Virus record (IMG/VR): IMGVR_UViG_2687453522_000001
Origin: a virus
Taxonomy: Duplodnaviria > Heunggongvirae > Uroviricota > Caudoviricetes
Length of the DNA: 64,000 nt
Direction: 5' to 3' (one strand)
The notes below the pieces were generated by a model, which worked only from the letters and a program-made list of their open reading frames with translations, did no database searches and had not been told where the DNA came from. Position 1 is the first letter of the stretch. Each line of letters begins with the position of its first letter. Position numbers and translations under genes: made by a program. Shown here piece after piece: positions 40,890-56,825 of this stretch.

Positions 40890-41783
40890 ATGCATTCTTT
40901 ACAGAAATACATAAAACATAAATATACTCACTTAACTTTTTTTCTCTCATTACTTTTCTTCATGATATTTGAATCTCGAGAAGATATTATCAAGAAAACA
41001 TTATCTTTTTCTCTCGATGAAGTTTTACCATTCTTAATGTTTGCGTTCTTCTCCGCCTTTATCAGCATAACGATAAAGGAAAAGATAGCAAAAAAATACC
41101 CAGAAACAAACGATGGGATTACCATTATAGCTTTAATCTTTGGTGTAACGCTATATAGTGTATTTATATTATATTATTTATATGGTGATGTATACCAATC
41201 CACAATTGCTTTACTTATAAGTTCTGTGCTACTTGGTTCTGGGTGGTGGGTTCAGGCTACTGTGAGTAAAGTAGCCGCAAGAAAATCACACACCTTAAAT
41301 ACACTAATGAATCAAAGAAACAGTGAATTATTTCACAAAAAAGTCTCATCGGTAGCGAATACGTTCGGGCTTAGAAAAACCATAAATGAAATTATTGCCA
41401 AACAAAGACTTATCCCAAATGATAAAGATTTAAAAAATAAAAAGGTCCATGATAAATACATATCAGCAGGTAATGATATGTTCTTCGTTCTTAATTATTA
41501 TGAGTTTATCTGTTCAGGAATAATAAATGGAGACTTTGATGAAGATTCAATGAGAGAATGTCTTGGACAAATTGTTCCAGGTCTCGAAGTTAGAGCATTT
41601 CATTTTATAAGAATTGCAAGAGAAATTTCAGGGAGTAGCTGCTTCTGTAATTTTGTTGCTGTTTCAGATAAATGGTCTACTAATGGAGGCTCTCTTATTC
41701 TCAGACACGAGAAAGGAGAACCTGTGATCAATAACCTGACCCATTGCTTTGAAGAAACAGCCTGTTATAACACAACATCTTAA
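40890..41783 (+). CDS. multi-pass membrane protein with a ~170-aa cytoplasmic C-terminal domain (accessory cargo at the sim position)
   Basis: About four N-terminal hydrophobic helices; very AT-rich; opposite strand to flanking phage genes. Confidence 0.6.
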   Translation: MHSLQKYIKHKYTHLTFFLSLLFFMIFESREDIIKKTLSFSLDEVLPFLMFAFFSAFISITIKEKIAKKYPETNDGITIIALIFGVTLYSVFILYYLYGDVYQSTIALLISSVLLGSGWWVQATVSKVAARKSHTLNTLMNQRNSELFHKKVSSVANTFGLRKTINEIIAKQRLIPNDKDLKNKKVHDKYISAGNDMFFVLNYYEFICSGIINGDFDEDSMRECLGQIVPGLEVRAFHFIRIAREISGSSCFCNFVAVSDKWSTNGGSLILRHEKGEPVINNLTHCFEETACYNTTS

Positions 41784-41834: not shown

Positions 41835-42311
41835 TTAATCGCCGCGCTTTAAGCATCCATCGTTTTTAGCTTGTTGATATAATTTACTTAGCCCAGAAAG
41901 AGGAAATGTGGCAATTTTTTCATTATCAACATAAGCATCGATCGCATTAGCATTTGAATCTGCTGCATCTTGCCAAAAGGCATACCACCAAGAATCTCCA
42001 ACCATTGACCCAAGATTGCTAAAAGGGTATTGCTCACCATCTAATGTTAATACTATTTTACTCTTGTCAGCATTATACTCTTTTTTATTATTCGACGACC
42101 TTAGCAACAGGCCTAAACTACCGGCACTATCTGGTGATCCATACATGAAACCCATATCACATAAAAAACTTATCTTATCACCATTTTGATTATGGATTGT
42201 ATATTCTCTCCCCCCTCTATCTTCAATTACATTCCATTGTAGAGGATCAATTTTTGCAAATACTCCTGCTGAAATTAACGATACAAATAATAAAAACCAT
42301 CTCATATTCAT
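41835..42311 (-). CDS. secreted (signal-peptide) protein, 158 aa
   Basis: N-terminal MNMRWFLLFVSLISAGVFA signal-peptide-like sequence; AT-rich; downstream of the 116-aa membrane protein on the same strand. Confidence 0.55.
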   Translation of the reverse strand: MNMRWFLLFVSLISAGVFAKIDPLQWNVIEDRGGREYTIHNQNGDKISFLCDMGFMYGSPDSAGSLGLLLRSSNNKKEYNADKSKIVLTLDGEQYPFSNLGSMVGDSWWYAFWQDAADSNANAIDAYVDNEKIATFPLSGLSKLYQQAKNDGCLKRGD

Positions 42312-42333
42312 TTTTTTCGCTTCTTATCTGTAA

Positions 42334-42684
42334 TTATTCTGCAATATCATTTGCCCATTGCACGGCAGCAAAATGAGTGCCCAAGCCACTCAGGAAAGCA
42401 ATTATTCCCAAAACAATACTAGCTGCTGTTGATTCAAACAAAGCACCAATGCTATAGCCAATAGCTCCCCATACTAAGCTAAAGACAATCATCAATGGTA
42501 TTGCCAGAAATTTTATTCTTAAACTAAAAATCAGTCCAAGAAATGAACCGCCAAAGGCCCACCATGATTTAGACATTAAACCTATCAGTATTGACAGAAT
42601 TCCTATTTCAATAAAGAGAATATTAGATTGCTCTTCATTGAATTTCGCATTTGTTACACCTTTACGAACATGTTCAGATGACAT
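42334..42684 (-). CDS. small inner-membrane protein (three predicted TM helices), 116 aa
   Basis: Hydrophobic segments ILFIEIGILSILIGL, IPLMIVFSLVWGAIGY, IVLGIIAFLSGL; AT-rich. Confidence 0.55.
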   Translation of the reverse strand: MSSEHVRKGVTNAKFNEEQSNILFIEIGILSILIGLMSKSWWAFGGSFLGLIFSLRIKFLAIPLMIVFSLVWGAIGYSIGALFESTAASIVLGIIAFLSGLGTHFAAVQWANDIAE

Positions 42685-42837
42685 GATTAACTATCTCCAG
42701 CCACAGATAAAACGCCTTAAAATAACATTTTGTAGCACAAAGTTTCACCATGCAATGGTCAAAGTCTTTGATCCATATCAATTAGAGTTATACATTTTAG
42801 TTGCATAGCTAATAATTTATACGGACACAAATTGCTC

Positions 42838-42854
42838 TAATTATTTTGTTTTTT
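42838..42854 (+). promoter_or_regulatory. C1 operator-like site (ATTGCTCTAATTATTTT), immI promoter region (Op51-like)
   Basis: 15/17 match to the consensus, upstream of the c4/icd/ant block. Confidence 0.5.
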
Positions 42855-43044
42855 TAGTTTCATATGCTACATTAACTCGCTTGCGTGCTAATGCATTTTC
42901 GGTTTATCCTAAACAAGCATCTTAGTAAAACGGATGCCGGGATTGGAACCCCGGATAATGCAAAAGGCGACACAGACGCCAAAAGCGTCTTTTTTATGTC
43001 ATGCCATCGCACAACCATACGTAGCACATAGCTACGAGATCAAT

Positions 43045-45484: not shown

Positions 45485-46330
45485 ATGCTGGCTAAAGTCA
45501 CTTTCCTGAGCTGTATAACGATGAGCGATTTTACTTTTTCTGGCTATGAATTGGCCTGCTTTGTAACACACTCCGGTCTATCCCGTAGCGCCGGGCATAT
45601 CCTGTCGCAATGTGCAAATCTAGCGGCAACAACCAGTGAATACTTCATTCACAAGCCTCACCGCCTGATCGCGGCAGAAACTGGTTATAGCCAATCAACC
45701 GTCGTTCGTGCATTCCGTGAAGCTGTAAACAAAGGAATTCTGTCTGTAGAGATTGTTATCGGCGATCACCGTGAACGTCGCGCTAACCTGTACCGGTTTA
45801 CACCATCCTTTTTGGCCTTCGCACAACAAGCCAAAAATGCGCTGATTAAAAGCAAATTAAAGATCTCTTCAGCGGCAACCAAGGTTAAAGCTGTTCTCGC
45901 TAAGACATTGTCTTTATTTAATTTTTTATCCACACCCCCATGTCAAAATGATACCCCCTCCCCCTGTCAGGATGACGTGGCAATAAAGAATAAGAAGTCA
46001 CAAGTTAAAAAAACAAAAAGATCAGTTTCCGGCGGTGCCGGAACGACCAGATTCAAAAAATTGACCTCATGGATCGCTGAGGCAAAAGCAAAGGCTGACA
46101 ATCTGCGGTTATCCAAAAAACGCGCTCAAAAACATGAGTTCAAGCAGAAAGTAGAGGCGGCAGCGCGGAAATATGCTTACCTGAAGAACAAGCGTTCTCC
46201 TGATATTAGCGGGGTATCAAACTTCGATAATCTGCCGCATTGCATGACGGTAAACGAAGCTCTTAATGCGGTTTTAGCCAAAAATAAAGATAACGAAAAA
46301 TGGGGTATACCGGCAGGATTCAGAGGGTGA
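45485..46330 (+). CDS. repL: RepL lytic replication initiator, 281 aa
   Basis: Length and position (downstream of kilA under a C1-controlled promoter) equal P1 RepL. Confidence 0.7.
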   Translation: MLAKVTFLSCITMSDFTFSGYELACFVTHSGLSRSAGHILSQCANLAATTSEYFIHKPHRLIAAETGYSQSTVVRAFREAVNKGILSVEIVIGDHRERRANLYRFTPSFLAFAQQAKNALIKSKLKISSAATKVKAVLAKTLSLFNFLSTPPCQNDTPSPCQDDVAIKNKKSQVKKTKRSVSGGAGTTRFKKLTSWIAEAKAKADNLRLSKKRAQKHEFKQKVEAAARKYAYLKNKRSPDISGVSNFDNLPHCMTVNEALNAVLAKNKDNEKWGIPAGFRG

Positions 46331-46333
46331 TAG

Positions 46334-46350
46334 ATTGCTCTAATCTGGAG
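46334..46350 (+). promoter_or_regulatory. partial C1 operator-like site (ATTGCTCTAATCTGGAG)
   Basis: Core ATTGCTCTAAT intact, distal half diverged; immediately after the repL stop. Confidence 0.3.
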
Positions 46351-46594
46351 TCACCTGGCGTTTTCAGTTTGAGGTCGGAGATGCAATCTGATTTTTTACA
46401 GTTAGCGATTACTTTTTGCAGGGCATCGTTGAGACATATCCATATATAAAAACCCAAAGCCAGATCAAAACTTGTACTGATAAAAACACAGCTAACCATC
46501 ACAACTTGTAACGTTTATAATTAGTAAAAGAGTGATACATTGCTACTTTTACATATTTTTTGACTTAATTCATGGATAGTAATGGAGATGCATA

Positions 46595-47650
46595 ATGACT
46601 TATGCTGGCACACAAACAGCAGATAACGCCGGGGATACCATGAAATCATATGCTATTTGGAATAATAAAGGTGGCGTAGGAAAGACCTACTTATCTTTCG
46701 CTATGGCCTGTGAATACGCAAGGCAAAATCCAGAAAAGCGTATTATTTTTGCAGATATGTGCCCGCAGGCTAACTTATCTGAAATATTGCTCGGCGGTAA
46801 CGGTACTGGTGCTGCTAACCTCGCGAGCTTAATTCAACAACGAAAAACTGTCGGTGGGTACTTTGACAGAAGAACTCGCAGCCCCCACATGCTTACCGGT
46901 TCAGAAACAAGTTTCTTAATTCATGTCTCTGAAATTAACGAGCATGTCCCTGACAATGTATTTTTGATTGCAGGCGACCCAAGCCTGGAAGTTCAGGCGC
47001 AAGTAATCAATCAGTTAAGCAGCGTAAACTTACCAGTTGACTCATGGAAAAGCATCCACCTGTGGCTACGAGATTTGCTTGTTGCATGTGCACAACAACA
47101 AGGTATCGAAGAAACCATTTGCTTTATTGATTGCAATCCCAGTTTCTCTGCCTATACCGAACTATCACTGATAGCAGCAAATGCAATTATAATACCTTGC
47201 TCAAGTGATGGTTCTTCGGCTCGAGCAGTGGATAACCTAAGCCAGTTGGTTTATGGCGTTGGAGTACAAAACGATTATCGTTCTGTTAACTTTTACGATC
47301 GGTGTCAACAGTTTGGTCTAGCGGTTCCTGTCATTCATTCTCTAGTTTTTAATCGTTCGACAGAGTATGACAAACGAGCAAGTAAAGCGTTTTCGGCAAT
47401 GTTCGACGAAATCAGGGATAGAGCTGAAAATCTGCGGACGAATAAACCAACAGCGTTCCAAGGCGGAAATTTAAAAACGTTTACTGTGCCAGATAACCAT
47501 TCCGTAGCTATAGTATCTTCCCATCTAGGAAGACCTCTATTTGATATAAAACCAGGCAGATATCAGATCCATGACACTGAGCCACAAATCAATAATGAAC
47601 CATTAGAAAGATATGGTGCAGCAATCGAACGTCTTGTTCAGAGTTTATAG
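46595..47650 (+). CDS. orphan ParA/MinD-family ATPase, 351 aa
   Basis: Deviant Walker A NNKGGVGKTYLS; no adjacent ParB-like gene; GC lower than the backbone by eye. Confidence 0.65.
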   Translation: MTYAGTQTADNAGDTMKSYAIWNNKGGVGKTYLSFAMACEYARQNPEKRIIFADMCPQANLSEILLGGNGTGAANLASLIQQRKTVGGYFDRRTRSPHMLTGSETSFLIHVSEINEHVPDNVFLIAGDPSLEVQAQVINQLSSVNLPVDSWKSIHLWLRDLLVACAQQQGIEETICFIDCNPSFSAYTELSLIAANAIIIPCSSDGSSARAVDNLSQLVYGVGVQNDYRSVNFYDRCQQFGLAVPVIHSLVFNRSTEYDKRASKAFSAMFDEIRDRAENLRTNKPTAFQGGNLKTFTVPDNHSVAIVSSHLGRPLFDIKPGRYQIHDTEPQINNEPLERYGAAIERLVQSL

Positions 47651-47674
47651 TGGCTTATCTCAGTCATAATGGCT

Positions 47675-47708
47675 AAAAAAAGGCTGCAACAGAGGTTGCA
47701 GCCTTTTT
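47675..47708. terminator. bidirectional intrinsic terminator
   Basis: AAAAAGGCTGCAAC-agag-GTTGCAGCCTTTTT. Confidence 0.5.
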
Positions 47709-47719
47709 ATAAAATTACA

Positions 47720-48007
47720 TTAACAGACTGGTAGCGATAGTAAATTATTATTCCATCGATTGTCTGCATACGTTCTAATAAACTGCCTTCCACCATTACC
47801 AGGATTAACAACCCCAACTTCTACACGATTACCTGCATTATCTGTTACATAGAATGTATGGAGATTATTATCAATAGCATTAATTACCTGCTCAACAGTC
47901 CATTTCCCATTGCTAGTATTAAATTGAGGACTTCCCACATGAGTAATATGCTCATGGATTGATTGCGAGCCGGAGAGGGTAATGCAAGTAATGCGTACAT
48001 CAGCCAT
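47720..48007 (-). CDS. small hypothetical protein (~95 aa)
   Basis: Track ORF 47720..48097; probable start MADVRITCI; contains HEHITHVG; AT-rich. Confidence 0.4.
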   Translation of the reverse strand: MADVRITCITLSGSQSIHEHITHVGSPQFNTSNGKWTVEQVINAIDNNLHTFYVTDNAGNRVEVGVVNPGNGGRQFIRTYADNRWNNNLLSLPVC

Positions 48008-48296
48008 ATATGCTTCCTTTATTCTATAGATTATAGGAATTGCGTCGTCCAAAAAAACAAACAACACAATAACAATAAAGAAACATACACACAACAAAAA
48101 CTAACGCTATTTATTGATAGATTTGCCTGATGAATGCTAGCTCTCTTTGCTACCTAGCACTCAAACAAATAACAGAAGAAAGACCCAGATAACATTACGC
48201 GTCCTGCAAGACGCTTAACATTAATCTGAGGCCATATCTATGCTTAGCATATCTAGATTAACCCTCTCCCCTTTTAAGGAGCAAGGAATTTTACTG

Positions 48297-48929
48297 CTAT
48301 GCCGCCTTTCCAGTTATGGATTCTGCGACAAGAACAACCCCATGCTTACTTCGATCCGGATGTTCACTCCATATCTCGGATTCAGGAATACTTTTCCCGT
48401 CATAGCAAACACGTTCGCCATCAAATGGGTAATACTGAGCAGTATCGGTGTCCAGGATAAAAACTTTTAGTTCGGAAGAACGACGAGCGATGTGCTGCCA
48501 AAGAGCCTTTCCGCCTTCGTATTGCTCATTGTCACTTAGCAAAACAACTCCGGCTTTTGAAGCTACGGTTTCATAAACAAAAGTGGCTAAACCGACATCC
48601 CGGACGATTCCATCAACCACGATACCTTCAATCTGGGCAACATCGTTATCTTCCCAGAACTTCCTCACCAGTACGCCTTCAAGCTGTGGGCGACGTTGAA
48701 GTTCAAGAGTAGCGACAACCTTATGGCGCATATCACCATCGATAACAGAAGGAGCAGCCTCTATTACGGCAGCAAATGGGGTTTTGGAATCCCATATAAC
48801 CTGGTAAAGCACACCCTGGATGGTAACTCCGTCCAGGATCGAAAATCGACGAGCGACAGTACCCGGGGAGTACGACATTGGAATCACAGCCATTTTAGAG
48901 TCCCCCTTTAACAGTACAGGCACAAACAT
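48297..48929 (-). CDS. hypothetical protein, 210 aa
   Basis: ORF with backbone-like composition; no motifs recognised. Confidence 0.4.
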   Translation of the reverse strand: MFVPVLLKGDSKMAVIPMSYSPGTVARRFSILDGVTIQGVLYQVIWDSKTPFAAVIEAAPSVIDGDMRHKVVATLELQRRPQLEGVLVRKFWEDNDVAQIEGIVVDGIVRDVGLATFVYETVASKAGVVLLSDNEQYEGGKALWQHIARRSSELKVFILDTDTAQYYPFDGERVCYDGKSIPESEIWSEHPDRSKHGVVLVAESITGKAA

Positions 48930-49064: not shown

Positions 49065-49574
49065 TTAATCCCACTCAATCCAGTTGTAGACGATACGAAG
49101 TGACGGGCGCACAGCGGCAGTCACATCTTCGGTACTAAAGTCGATTGCATCACTGTAGATTTTGCAGTCCAACATTTCAATTGTTGTAGCAGCTTTTGTC
49201 ACAGCGTTAACCCCGGAAGATTTGGATTCAGGGGTCGCAGCCATCGTGATATCAACATAGTCCTTCGCCGCAATGCGATCTTTAATGAACTGAAGAATAT
49301 CACCTTCGATAGTCTCCACGCACTGGACCTGGATTTCCCCGGAGTTACGGATTGGACCGTGCTGGTTGAACTTCACACCATTCGGACCATAGTCCTCCAC
49401 ATCCTCGCGGGTCATTTCAGGAATTTGCGACGTGCGAACCAGTACGCTGATATCTTCATGGCCTGCAAAAGTGAGCTGGAATTCAGAAGATACCAGTCGT
49501 TCGCCTTTGGCCGCGTTGGCAGTATAGCGGCCCTTAATAAATTTACGGTTTCCCTTAGTGTTATTGTGCCCCAT
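49065..49574 (-). CDS. hypothetical virion-module protein, 169 aa
   Basis: Downstream of the sheath-like gene in the same operon. Confidence 0.4.
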   Translation of the reverse strand: MGHNNTKGNRKFIKGRYTANAAKGERLVSSEFQLTFAGHEDISVLVRTSQIPEMTREDVEDYGPNGVKFNQHGPIRNSGEIQVQCVETIEGDILQFIKDRIAAKDYVDITMAATPESKSSGVNAVTKAATTIEMLDCKIYSDAIDFSTEDVTAAVRPSLRIVYNWIEWD

Positions 49575-54519: not shown

Positions 54520-54610
54520 CAAGGTGAAATCGTGGCGATTTCACCTTGAAATTTTAGAGTGATTTACTTTAAAAACAGTAGGTTAATAGTGAAATTTGAA
54601 TGGCGAAAGT
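54520..54610. promoter_or_regulatory. parS partition site (centromere)
   Basis: GTGAAATCGTGGCGATTTCAC palindrome (box A ATTTCAC heptamers flanking box B TCGCCA) plus a second box A/box B pair (GTGAAAT...TGGCGA) across an AT-rich spacer, directly downstream of parB. Confidence 0.75.
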
Positions 54611-55612
54611 TTAAGGCTTCGGCTTTTTATCGAGGCTCTTTCTAAGGATATGCCCAATCATCCTGTCGAGTTCTTCCTGTAGCTCTTTTGAAAGTCGATT
54701 AAACTCATAAGAAAATGCACGGCCTTTCACGCGCTTCCTTGCAAAGCGATCCTTGTCCTCAAATTTCCATAATTCAGTAACTACGGACTTATCTTTAGAA
54801 CCTTTATCCGTGAGTAGTGAGGCTTCCTTTGTTATCAAGCGCAGGATTTTATTTTTAACTTCATCTTCGGCCATTTCTTCAATGGATAAGATGTCGTTTA
54901 TTTCCGGGGATATGTTTTGAATAAGCTGATCAAACTCTAAATTCTTGTTCCCCATTTCGTCGCCAACAGCACAAAGCGTTTTGTAGTCCGAAAAGGTTAA
55001 TTCCGACTGCACAGGGAAAAGGGCGACTAATTCTTCCGGAGCACTCGCTGCCTGGAGAGCACGCGTGACTTTCGCCTGAGACAGCCCTTCCTTGGCTGCA
55101 ATATCCTTCTGACTCATCCCATCATTTTTCATTCGCATCAAACGCAGACCTATTTCTCGAATGCTGTGCTGCAATGCTGTCTGAACGTCTTTCGCTAAAT
55201 TTTGCGCTTCCTGAACGCTGATCTCCTGGTCCGTGACTAAAACCCGCAACCCTACGTTCTCTAAGATGGCAGAAGCTCGACGCCGGGAACCATCCAAAAT
55301 TTCAATTTTCCCTGTAGCCCGTCTAACACCTATTGCAGGGTAAAATTGCTGATGCTTAATAGTGCTTCGGATACTTTTTAATGATTTTGGCGTAAGAGAT
55401 GCCTGGTCACGCCCGTTGTTATGCTGATCAACAAAGGTATCGCGTTCTACCTGGTTCGGAGGTATTACCTCTTCAATAAATGTGGCCTGGCGACCAGTTG
55501 ATAACTTGAATACCTGCTCGACTCGATCGCCAGAGGCTGAAGAACTATCAAATCCGCTTAATATTGAAGGATTAAGGGTTCGCCCAATTGTTGGTCTGTT
55601 TTTCTTTGACAT
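54611..55612 (-). CDS. parB: ParB partition protein, 333 aa
   Basis: Length equals P1 ParB; follows parA; parS immediately downstream. Confidence 0.9.
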   Translation of the reverse strand: MSKKNRPTIGRTLNPSILSGFDSSSASGDRVEQVFKLSTGRQATFIEEVIPPNQVERDTFVDQHNNGRDQASLTPKSLKSIRSTIKHQQFYPAIGVRRATGKIEILDGSRRRASAILENVGLRVLVTDQEISVQEAQNLAKDVQTALQHSIREIGLRLMRMKNDGMSQKDIAAKEGLSQAKVTRALQAASAPEELVALFPVQSELTFSDYKTLCAVGDEMGNKNLEFDQLIQNISPEINDILSIEEMAEDEVKNKILRLITKEASLLTDKGSKDKSVVTELWKFEDKDRFARKRVKGRAFSYEFNRLSKELQEELDRMIGHILRKSLDKKPKP

Positions 55613-55628: not shown

Positions 55629-56825
55629 TCAGTTAGATCTGATAAATTCAATACGGTCAAAAACTGCTTTAGCAAAATCTTCCGCGGCAATTCGCGCGTT
55701 CTTCAATGCATCAGCACTACCAACATACGTTGCCGGGTTAGCTGAAATAACAGTGTCAAAAGACTCGCCGCAACGTTCAAAACCGTCAAGGCGAGGGAGG
55801 ACGACATCGAGCATATCCCCACCGAACACTTCTTTAGCCAAGCTATGGCAATACTTATGATCTGCCTTGTTACTCAACTTGGACATAAAACCAATGTTAG
55901 TCGCAAGCTGGCACTCGCAGCCTTCATCCGAAATGAGTTTCACCAACTCAGGAAGGCGGGCAACGTATTTAAGCGATGAGTGGAAATCGACAGTTGCTGG
56001 CGGCAGAGGTGTAAACAGTATATTGGCCGAGGCCAAAGCATTTTTCAGGAAGGCGTCAAGGTGAGGACCACTATCAACGAGGATAAAGTCATAATCGCTC
56101 TTCAGCTTATCAATCACATTTTCTTTCAGGACAGCATGGATGTTCTGACCCGGTAGATGCTCATTGCACAGCTCTCTCCAATCGGATGCAATAAAGGCAT
56201 CGTCAATCGACGCAGGCATAACGTCAACCCCAGGTACAACAGAAGGAACAATAAACTCCTCTAACAGCTCTTCACGGCTTACATTCTGCAACATAGCCTG
56301 TGCAGATGTTGCGTTTACGATACCAATAGAGTGTTTATGGCTTAAAAACATCGTTGCTGAAGATTGCGGATCAAGGTCAATAACCAGAATCCTTAAATCT
56401 TCCATCAGAAGATGAGGGTGGGCACGCATTGCATGCGCCAGAGAAACCGTCGATACAGTTTTTGACACACCGCCTTTAAGATTGGAGATGAAAATCACAT
56501 ACGCTTCGCTGTAGCGATCCCGGTATTTTGGCACTCCGCGATGTTCATATATGTCAATGATGTTCTGAATTGACATCGCATATTTCATTGAAGAGCCAGC
56601 AGGGCGTTTATCGAAAACATAGCCCTTTTCTTCCATTTCACTTACGGCATAGTCAACGTTCGCTCGAGTCAGTAGAGGCAATTTTGCCAGTGCCGCTTTC
56701 GCATAGACCTGGTAAAACTCGTTCGCGTGTAGCTCATCCTTTTGCAACTGTACTTGTTCAGTCAGAACATTGAGCATTCTGTTTGCTCTTTGAGCAACCT
56801 TGTGAAGCTGGCTGGAATCACTCAT
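55629..56825 (-). CDS. parA: ParA partition ATPase (type Ia, N-terminal HTH extension), 398 aa
   Basis: Walker A NLKGGVSKTVSTVS; length equals P1 ParA. Confidence 0.9.
   Translation of the reverse strand: MSDSSQLHKVAQRANRMLNVLTEQVQLQKDELHANEFYQVYAKAALAKLPLLTRANVDYAVSEMEEKGYVFDKRPAGSSMKYAMSIQNIIDIYEHRGVPKYRDRYSEAYVIFISNLKGGVSKTVSTVSLAHAMRAHPHLLMEDLRILVIDLDPQSSATMFLSHKHSIGIVNATSAQAMLQNVSREELLEEFIVPSVVPGVDVMPASIDDAFIASDWRELCNEHLPGQNIHAVLKENVIDKLKSDYDFILVDSGPHLDAFLKNALASANILFTPLPPATVDFHSSLKYVARLPELVKLISDEGCECQLATNIGFMSKLSNKADHKYCHSLAKEVFGGDMLDVVLPRLDGFERCGESFDTVISANPATYVGSADALKNARIAAEDFAKAVFDRIEFIRSN

Follow-up and report, generated by a model that had tools for sequence, protein, structure and literature searches.

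Why should a prophage that already has a complete partition system carry a second ParA-like ATPase? The question is raised by a 64,000-nucleotide stretch of viral DNA (Caudoviricetes; IMG/VR record IMGVR_UViG_2687453522_000001), here called the window, which is a P1-like phage-plasmid. A first-pass annotation, made from the letters alone, had noticed a 351-residue ATPase with a KGGVGKT motif downstream of the replication gene repL, and had offered incompatibility, replication-linked positioning or abortive infection (Abi) as its possible role. Our answer, which we think probable, is that this ATPase provides a single-gene anti-phage (superinfection-exclusion) function, expressed by the plasmid prophage to protect its host and itself. 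The gene is:

46595-47650, plus strand: GiPD474-family ATPase of ParA/MinD fold, 351 amino acids; alternative start codon ATG at 46640

This open reading frame (ORF) begins 265 nt past the repL stop codon (46330), much as first described. It matches Pfam AAA_31 (E 5e-15), and also CbiA and PHROG 164, "ParA-like partition protein" (E 2e-43); its Walker A motif reads WNNKGGVGKT. RefSeq calls the same 351-residue frame a "ParA family protein" (WP_052761440.1) in a plasmid of 100% identity. The true start is uncertain, since most homologs begin where the window protein has Met16 (ATG 46640).

The evidence for defence comes from GiPD474 (WP_000368620.1, STM474_RS13505), a protein of the Gifsy-1 prophage in Salmonella Typhimurium 4/74 (Bosma, Noireaux, Bowden 2025, Appl Environ Microbiol; PMC12724215). 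Its gene lies in the Gifsy-1 immunity region and is responsible for resistance to phage FO1, as established through deletion, complementation, and heterologous expression. When carried on a low-copy plasmid in Salmonella or E. coli, gipd474 lowers the plating of phages FO1, Alf5, and T4 by as much as about 5 logs, and has no effect on T7, SP6, LPST153, S16, Jbel, or VpaE1. The authors suggest that it acts after adsorption. They describe a ParA/MinD/Soj-like fold with an AAA_31 domain and GGVGKT at residues 29-34, and report homologs (at least 70% identity and at least 70% coverage) beside cII, cro, and repressor genes across the Enterobacteriaceae (all PMC12724215).

The GiPD474 gene itself was recovered for comparison from four IMG/VR contigs, through an exact match to the published check primer; the knockout-arm primer of the same paper also matches these contigs exactly. 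(The primers had no match in the loci first fetched; the gene was found by a scan of viral contigs.) The recovered ORF (locus L097, 6935-8020) has 1086 bp, encodes 361 residues with GGVGKT at 29-34, as published, and follows a cI-like helix-turn-helix (HTH) gene. In BLASTP, GiPD474 aligns from residue 19 to the last with the window ATPase, over 342 of the latter's 351 residues, with 36% identity, 59% positives, and E 3e-79. The two proteins have in common the motifs WNNKGGVGKT, D-x-C-P-Q-x-N-x-SE, LGGNG-G, DCNPSF-x-YTE, and IIPC; the GiPD474 version of the switch motif is D-A-C-P-Q. Judged by sequence, the window ATPase is a member of the GiPD474 family, from a different and more conserved subfamily.

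The likeness extends beyond these motifs. Both are single proteins of about 350 residues with the ParA/MinD fold, the same Walker A motif, and Cys at the position of the catalytic Asp, and both are accessory cargo of temperate phages. The close relatives of the window ATPase have the repressor-adjacent position of GiPD474, whereas the window gene itself follows repL in a P1-type plasmid prophage and is not beside cI, cro, or cII. The C-terminal 50 or so residues of the window ATPase also diverge from those of GiPD474. A literature search for ParA-like defence proteins by name found nothing; GiPD474 surfaced under the Pfam name AAA_31. Of the three functions first offered, only the abortive infection or defence suggestion gains evidence, from this homology; no support was found for incompatibility or replication-linked positioning.

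The family turns out to be both widespread and uniform. A word-indexed protein search with the window ATPase returned 4521 homologs at E <1e-5, most of them 333-345 residues long and 55-60% identical to the query despite very distant sources. These sources include Oleidesulfovibrio alaskensis G20, Halomonas, Acidiferrobacter, Patescibacteria, Acidobacteriota, Chloroflexota, Planctomycetota, cyanobacteria, and Bdellovibrionales, along with archaeal metagenome-assembled genomes labelled Methanoperedenaceae, Hodarchaeota, and Micrarchaeota. With each species represented by a single genome, a scan of 185,579 species located 345 family loci. The family is nonetheless compact: 1.84 billion cluster representatives at 50% identity yield 97 members at E <1e-30 and 404 at E <1e-10. 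An alignment of 18 sequences has a mean column identity of 66% and about 100 invariant positions, including the deviant Walker A motif NNKGGVGKT (residues 23-31), which is invariant throughout the family.

An AlphaFold2 model of the ATPase (predicted local distance difference test, pLDDT, 85; predicted template-modelling score, pTM, 0.87) finds its best matches in the Protein Data Bank (PDB) among McdA, ParA, and Soj (Foldseek E about 1e-12; identity 12-20%). Like these SIMIBI-class proteins (Thermus thermophilus Soj, 2bek/1wcv; Cyanothece McdA, 6nop; P1 ParA), the window ATPase has a deviant Walker A with its signature Lys, a Walker A' Asp, and a Walker B; specifically, Lys25, Lys30, Asp54, and Asp179 of the Walker B motif (IDCNPS) are all kept. 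It differs from them not only in the low identity but in four further respects: Cys in place of the catalytic Asp; an insert of about 30 residues between the second and third strands, with the invariant motifs LGGNG-G and R-x-T-x-GGY-x-D-x-R; a C-terminal extension of about 100 residues; and the lack of a partner gene or centromere. The model also predicts a C-terminal helix at residues 334-350; the gene has no minC or minE neighbours. NCBIfam gives only sub-threshold matches, at the level of the Walker A motif, to ParA, BcsQ, and RepA, so the labels "BcsQ" and "chromosome partitioning" on database homologs are generic.

The most distinctive of these differences lies in the switch motif. The family sequence is D-M-C-P-Q-A-N (DMCPQAN in the window), which places Cys56 at the catalytic-Asp position. 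A profile alignment pairs this Cys with the second Asp of the VDLDPQ that wild-type ParA-like chains have, and with the Ala of VDLAPQ (2bek, Soj) and VDMAPQ (8ray, ParA with ATP). We take 2bek to be the hydrolysis-deficient Soj D44A mutant. The substitution is nearly universal: D-x-C-P occurs in 118 of 118 close hits and, among 93 cluster representatives that bear a Walker A motif, in 78, as against D-x-D-P in only two.

These features suggest how such a protein might work. Because the deviant Walker A, Walker A' Asp, and Walker B are all present, ATP binding would be expected to produce the nucleotide-sandwich dimer typical of deviant-Walker-A ATPases. With Cys56 in place of the water-activating Asp, hydrolysis should be slow or gated, giving a long-lived switch and not a cycling, positioning motor. 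Very high conservation across phyla would point to a conserved target (DNA or a core machine), not to variable phage proteins; the ATP-bound protein may thus engage a cellular component or nucleic acid that is itself highly conserved. Particular phages would then be blocked in their development once they have adsorbed, possibly at a cost to the infected cell. Each of these steps is held with considerably less confidence than the defence function as a whole.

Several points weigh against an anti-phage function for the window ATPase. The only tested relative is 36% identical, below the 70% criterion of PMC12724215, and so the window protein is no homolog in that paper's sense; function is being transferred across subfamilies, and the phenotypic evidence is limited to GiPD474, which lies outside the window ATPase's clade. 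The mechanism of GiPD474 is unknown, according to its authors (PMC12724215), and every mechanistic step proposed above is carried over by analogy from ParA/Soj biochemistry. For a protein that senses fast-evolving phage proteins, 55-60% identity between phyla is unusually high. PADLOC-DB 2.0 (2023), a library that predates the GiPD474 paper, gives no hit for the ATPase or for either of the two genes that follow it (described below). The weakest point of the window copy is its expression: it follows the lytic replicon gene repL and not a repressor gene, and a search of the upstream DNA turned up no convincing sigma-70 promoter, which leaves its expression in the lysogen unproven. Were transcription to read through from the C1-repressed P53 promoter, the ATPase would be a lytic-phase gene.

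The AT-rich leader bears directly on this last point.

46344-46594, plus strand: AT-rich leader of the ATPase gene, defined by sequence reading and repeat search

Its -10 hexamer at 46516-46521, TATAAT, is perfect but has only a weak -35 to go with it; a Shine-Dalgarno sequence, GGAG, lies at 46586-46589. A putative promoter may therefore be placed at 46516-46521, even though a consensus promoter scan found none upstream of the ATPase gene or its convergent neighbour. Two 13-nt direct repeats, ATCA[A/C]AACTTGTA, lie at 46464-46476 and 46498-46510, 34 nt apart; they adjoin the sole good -10 hexamer in the leader and are a possible regulator binding site. No conservation of the leader was seen at the DNA or RNA level: similarity to the Serratia, phi297, and metagenomic copies described next begins inside the coding region, and Rfam gives only sub-threshold matches over the region.

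Elsewhere in the family the genomic position speaks more clearly. ORFs were called and clustered in 80 loci from genome collections and in seven loci fetched earlier. Six phage-borne relatives, 35-85% identical to the window ATPase, are all directly downstream of a cI-type repressor gene on the same strand:

Serratia prophage, 85% identical
Pseudomonas phage phi297, 71% identical
three metagenomic lambdoid prophages, 70-71% identical
Klebsiella phage ST11-VIM1phi8.2, 35% identical

This is the position at which phage lambda keeps rexAB, and it is typical for genes expressed in the lysogen.

The clustering identified no conserved partner gene across the surveyed loci. Among the 80 loci, the only recurring neighbours are two transposase families and one small family of 145-residue proteins (four loci). 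A transposase of the IS1595 family or IS1-like type is the immediate neighbour of the ATPase gene in 16 of the 80. The clearest case is a Vicinamibacterales metagenome-assembled genome (OZ250139.1), where a 2272-bp unit comprising ATPase and transposase genes is present in three copies of 99.96-100% identity (L074 7883-10154, L075, and L076). Inverted repeats of 23 nt, GGGGATTATAAATATTACTTGAC and GGTGATTATAACTATTACTTGAC, bound the unit, and the 8-bp target duplications differ from copy to copy: ATCGGAAA, CAAATGAT, and ATATATAA. These separate duplications are direct evidence that the ATPase gene moves as a passenger of an insertion sequence (IS). In all three copies the ATPase has a frameshift about 97 codons in, either real or a long-read assembly error. 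The tip of the inverted repeats, GG..ATTAT, fits the ISNwi1 subgroup.

A second candidate unit (L026, 6940-9762) has imperfect inverted repeats of about 33 nt that enclose an IS1595-type transposase gene, an intact ATPase gene, and a 150-residue ORF; here too the ATPase is probably a passenger. Homologs of that ORF (family f7, about 145 residues, no Pfam hit) occur beside the ATPase in L019, L036, and L048 as well. Two further loci, a Halomonas chromosome (L009, 4768-6001) and a metagenomic prophage (L091, 5511-7001), have, upstream of the ATPase, an unusually long interval (1.2-1.5 kb) without a called gene.

Passenger-carrying elements of the IS1595 family have been termed "transporter IS" (Siguier, Gagnevin and Chandler 2009, in the passages of PMC3129680 and PMC11891212 that cite it). 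Some ATPase relatives lie inside such elements, complete with inverted repeats at the ends and an 8-bp duplication of the target, whereas the ORF map and repeat search reveal neither a transposase gene nor IS ends adjoining the window ATPase. The literature searched holds no report of a GiPD474-family ATPase as an IS passenger gene.

An ATPase that travels in this way might serve the mobile element itself, regulating or targeting transposition, by analogy with the ATPases that aid some transposases, or stabilizing the element that carries it. The frequent transposase neighbours, the three-copy unit with its repeats and duplications, and the second candidate unit are what such an accessory would predict. 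Nevertheless, some 80% of the loci lack an adjacent transposase gene, as does the window copy, and the phage-borne members are found by a repressor gene and not by a transposase gene. The IS literature treats passenger genes as unrelated to transposition. Moreover, the frameshift in all three OZ250139.1 copies implies, unless it is an assembly error, that transposition there was independent of an intact protein. Given also the defence phenotype of the one tested homolog, we regard a role in transposition or element maintenance as unlikely.

Anti-phage defence by a single protein thus remains the preferred explanation for the window ATPase, and the family survey allows a broader version of it. 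The window ATPase may belong to the core clade of a pan-prokaryotic and unusually conserved family of ParA-derived, single-protein immunity factors, in which the Cys-for-Asp change makes a slow or thiol-gated ATP switch that acts on a universal target (DNA, or the replication or translation machinery), and which has spread by way of IS1595- and IS1-type elements, phages, and plasmids. This is a tentative proposal, and one that we doubt more than we believe. If true, it would represent a new type of defence mechanism and a clear case of insertion sequences carrying an immune gene.

What the analysis adds to PMC12724215 is the breadth of the family outside the Enterobacteriaceae, its carriage by insertion sequences, and the near-invariant Asp-to-Cys change. 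The window ATPase is not a new kind of system: it adds a more conserved member to a defence family whose first description dates from late 2025, and it occupies a recognized cargo site. As a compact system of one protein, the family nonetheless lends itself to asking how phage can be stopped by a ParA-type ATPase, and the natural Asp-to-Cys change makes an obvious first mutant. Its carriage in small insertion sequences, with direct evidence for transposition, suggests a cheap route for immune genes between phyla. Among E. coli of clinical and animal origin, P1-like phage-plasmids are common; if the window ATPase does protect against T4-like or FO1-like phages, then such plasmids carry phage resistance beside their other cargo, which bears on phage therapy and biocontrol.

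The ATPase gene has a convergent neighbour, from which it is separated by a hairpin:

47674-47711, no strand assigned: bidirectional intrinsic terminator, from folding and repeat search
47720-48007, minus strand: DUF3892 small protein, 95 amino acids (PF13031, phrog_8224, RefSeq)
48014-48039, no strand assigned: 26-nt palindrome TTCCTTTATTCTATAGATTATAGGAA, from the inverted-repeat search

The bidirectional terminator of the first-pass annotation stands. Its 14-bp stem with A-rich and U-rich flanks has a folding energy of -29.7 kcal/mol (z = -4.6 relative to shuffled sequences), and the inverted-repeat search returned it with 17-nt arms, 94% complementary, around a 4-nt loop. A simple terminator scan missed this hairpin, which is common to both genes and is predicted to be able to terminate transcription in either direction.

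The convergent gene, recognized from the start by its HEHITHVG motif, encodes a DUF3892 protein (Pfam PF13031; score 56.4 bits, cut-off 22.3, E 4e-15). Its length needed correction: the 125-residue ORF with a TTG start is an over-call, and the ATG at 48007, behind the Shine-Dalgarno sequence AAGGAAG, gives 95 residues, in agreement with RefSeq. There are 112 homologs, mostly stand-alone proteins of 90-99 residues. Cys8, His23, and Cys95 are invariant, and HEHITHVG is the core motif; the invariant Cys and His residues suggest a putative metal site. Just ahead of the start codon, the palindrome TTCCTTTATTCTATAGATTATAGGAA shares bases with a perfect minus-strand -10 hexamer (TATAAT, 48035-48030) and is a candidate operator or promoter for the gene.

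An AlphaFold2 model of the DUF3892 protein (pLDDT 82) has no PDB fold match below E 1. DUF3892 has been described in print as dsRBD/HPF-like (dsRBD, double-stranded RNA-binding domain), which the model does not confirm. Burroughs and Aravind (2020), as cited in two papers, predicted a role in conflict systems, and the cited passages describe DUF3892 beside CapH/CapP-type regulators or fused to Min-Wnt effectors.

Might the two genes form one system, acquired and working together, for instance with DUF3892 sensing or regulating and the ATPase acting as effector or switch? Both are found in 41 PLSDB plasmids each, with an identical breakdown by organism and mobility, and in the 39 records with coverage of the whole segment of at least 80% the two genes keep the same arrangement, with a single bidirectional terminator serving both. 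The conflict-system associations cited above would fit as well. These carriers are almost all non-mobilizable plasmids of about 93-128 kb from E. coli, E. fergusonii, E. albertii, or Salmonella, isolated from human, poultry, pig, cattle, and environmental sources. However, the 41 plasmids are close relatives (at least 97% identity), so the co-occurrence reflects one insertion event and not repeated selection.

Beyond these plasmids the association dissolves. In the 80 genome-collection loci and the seven fetched earlier, a phmmer search (E up to 10) of flanks as long as 8 kb per side detected no DUF3892 homolog, and the 85%-identical Serratia ATPase is without one. Conversely, DUF3892 occurs without the ATPase in an E. 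coli satellite-like element and in a Salmonella FRG island. The window genes are convergent and form no operon, and GiPD474 works alone. A joint two-gene system is therefore improbable, and the comparison does not show the two genes to be a functional pair. The DUF3892 gene is best treated as a separate small accessory gene, co-inserted with the ATPase gene and not its conserved partner.

The remaining proposal, that a second ParA motor positions or stabilizes the prophage or disturbs competing P1-like plasmids, accords with the ParA/Soj/McdA fold, the intact deviant Walker A with its signature Lys, and the location on a low-copy plasmid prophage, yet it is highly improbable for a protein in which the catalytic Asp needed for the partition-motor ATPase cycle is replaced by Cys, which has no N-terminal HTH domain or nearby ParB-like or adaptor gene or centromere-like repeat array, whose closest relatives reside in integrated prophages and insertion sequences that need no partition, and whose own replicon already has the canonical P1 set:

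55629-56825, minus strand: P1 parA, with HTH_54 and AAA_31 domains and the canonical motif IDLDPQ
54611-55612, minus strand: P1 parB
54524-54544: exact match to the parS core

The first-pass annotation had thus been right to call the ATPase an orphan and to consider it dispensable for partition. Neither of its neighbours, repL and the DUF3892 gene, matches ParB. BLASTP aligns the orphan with P1 ParA over the Walker A stretch only (E 2e-4), and Pfam finds in it no N-terminal HTH domain, unlike P1 ParA. The presence of the canonical parA-parB-parS elsewhere in the window means that the orphan is not needed for partition.

How, then, did the ATPase gene come to lie downstream of repL? The surrounding features indicate a site of frequent exchange:

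45485-46330, plus strand: repL, 281 amino acids
46333-46343, plus strand: left 11 bases of the C1-operator consensus, ATTGCTCTAAT, a sequence match
48172-48287, plus strand: hok/mok/sok type I toxin-antitoxin remnant, leader only, from Rfam sok and mok matches and alignment
48297-48929, minus strand: 210-amino-acid ORF (phrog_7522, E 4e-146); the RefSeq call has 198 amino acids, 48297-48893
49065-49574, minus strand: bplB, 169 amino acids

At 46331-48296 the segment shares 100% identity with p1493-4, a plasmid of E. coli (NZ_CP019075.1), and its flanks match repL and bplB of P1, P7, SJ46, and RCS47 at 96-99%. The low content of guanine plus cytosine (GC) remarked on earlier is borne out, with values of 0.36-0.45 over 46200-48400 compared with 0.45-0.53 in the flanks. 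Cargo between repL and bplB differs among P1, P7, SJ46, RCS47, 673R5, and MH422554. In P1 the slot holds rlfA, rlfB, and pmgF (RlfA being a DUF3800 protein); in SJ46, other genes plus the 210-residue ORF; in 673R5, yet another gene set; in RCS47, an IS605-family transposase gene; and in the P1 variant MH422554, a hok-type toxin gene. A survey of P1-like phage-plasmids lists "rlfA, rlfB, pmgF" among eight highly variable, low-GC regions (PMC9603915). The interval from about 46344 to 48929 is exchangeable cargo in this variable region 5. Like the P1 genes, the window genes lie between repL and bplB and have a lower GC content than the backbone; they are unrelated to the P1 genes in sequence, replacing that segment without being homologous to it. 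The ATPase is accordingly no ortholog of a P1 backbone gene; such orthology was the result that the first-pass annotation had named as able to overturn its view.

The left junction of the cargo can be placed closely. The first-pass annotation had seen a partial C1 operator ahead of the ATPase gene, and the 11-mer ATTGCTCTAAT is indeed there. It fits the C1-operator consensus at only 11 of 17 positions and is not among the C1-operator matches with three or fewer mismatches in the operator scan. P1 has the same 11-mer at the same place after the repL stop codon, and P1 homology ends right behind it; for these reasons the 11-mer is assigned to the backbone, as a remnant at the left cargo junction and not a control element of the ATPase gene. 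The first 80 or so nucleotides of the ATPase leader (to about 46425) are common to phage 673R5. The 210-residue ORF, also present in Salmonella phage SJ46, forms the right-hand part of the cargo before bplB; a Pfam profile search with it gave no match. A repeat search around the insert with the ATPase and DUF3892 genes found nothing that marks a transposon or cassette.

Between these junctions lies a relic of earlier cargo. The hok/sok remnant scores 22.7 bits with the Rfam sok model (gathering score 59) and has an 88-nt match to mok regions; an ORF check and alignment with the intact MH422554 locus show that the hok toxin ORF is absent. At the same slot, MH422554 has an intact Hok-type ORF of 51 residues, annotated MokW (L109, 2909-3064). 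This leader remnant, along with the differing cargo in other P1 relatives, indicates repeated turnover of the slot.

Two other settings of the DUF3892 gene were encountered. In E. coli (L102-L105), a 73%-identical gene lies between a truncated and a full-length gene for a lambda-E-type capsid protein, at the edge of a satellite-like element that encodes a D5_N primase, a single-stranded DNA-binding protein (SSB), head-decoration and capsid proteins, and AlpA, and that adjoins lambdoid structural genes. In Salmonella enterica islands (L106-L108, 5001-6357), a 68%-identical DUF3892 gene lies 26-160 nt ahead of a gene for an FRG-domain protein on the same strand; these islands also encode a 1020-residue DEAD/ResIII helicase and, in one locus, a DUF4917 protein. 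The DUF3892 and FRG genes may form a two-gene module there.

Finally, the window has another stretch of probable cargo. A gene for a DUF4760-domain protein (40890-41783, plus strand, 297 amino acids; Pfam E 8e-14) lies upstream of the icd/ant region, and a low-GC stretch (0.34-0.36) at 42000-42999 lies just downstream of it. Both are probably further exchangeable cargo, near what we take to be the place where P1 has simABC.

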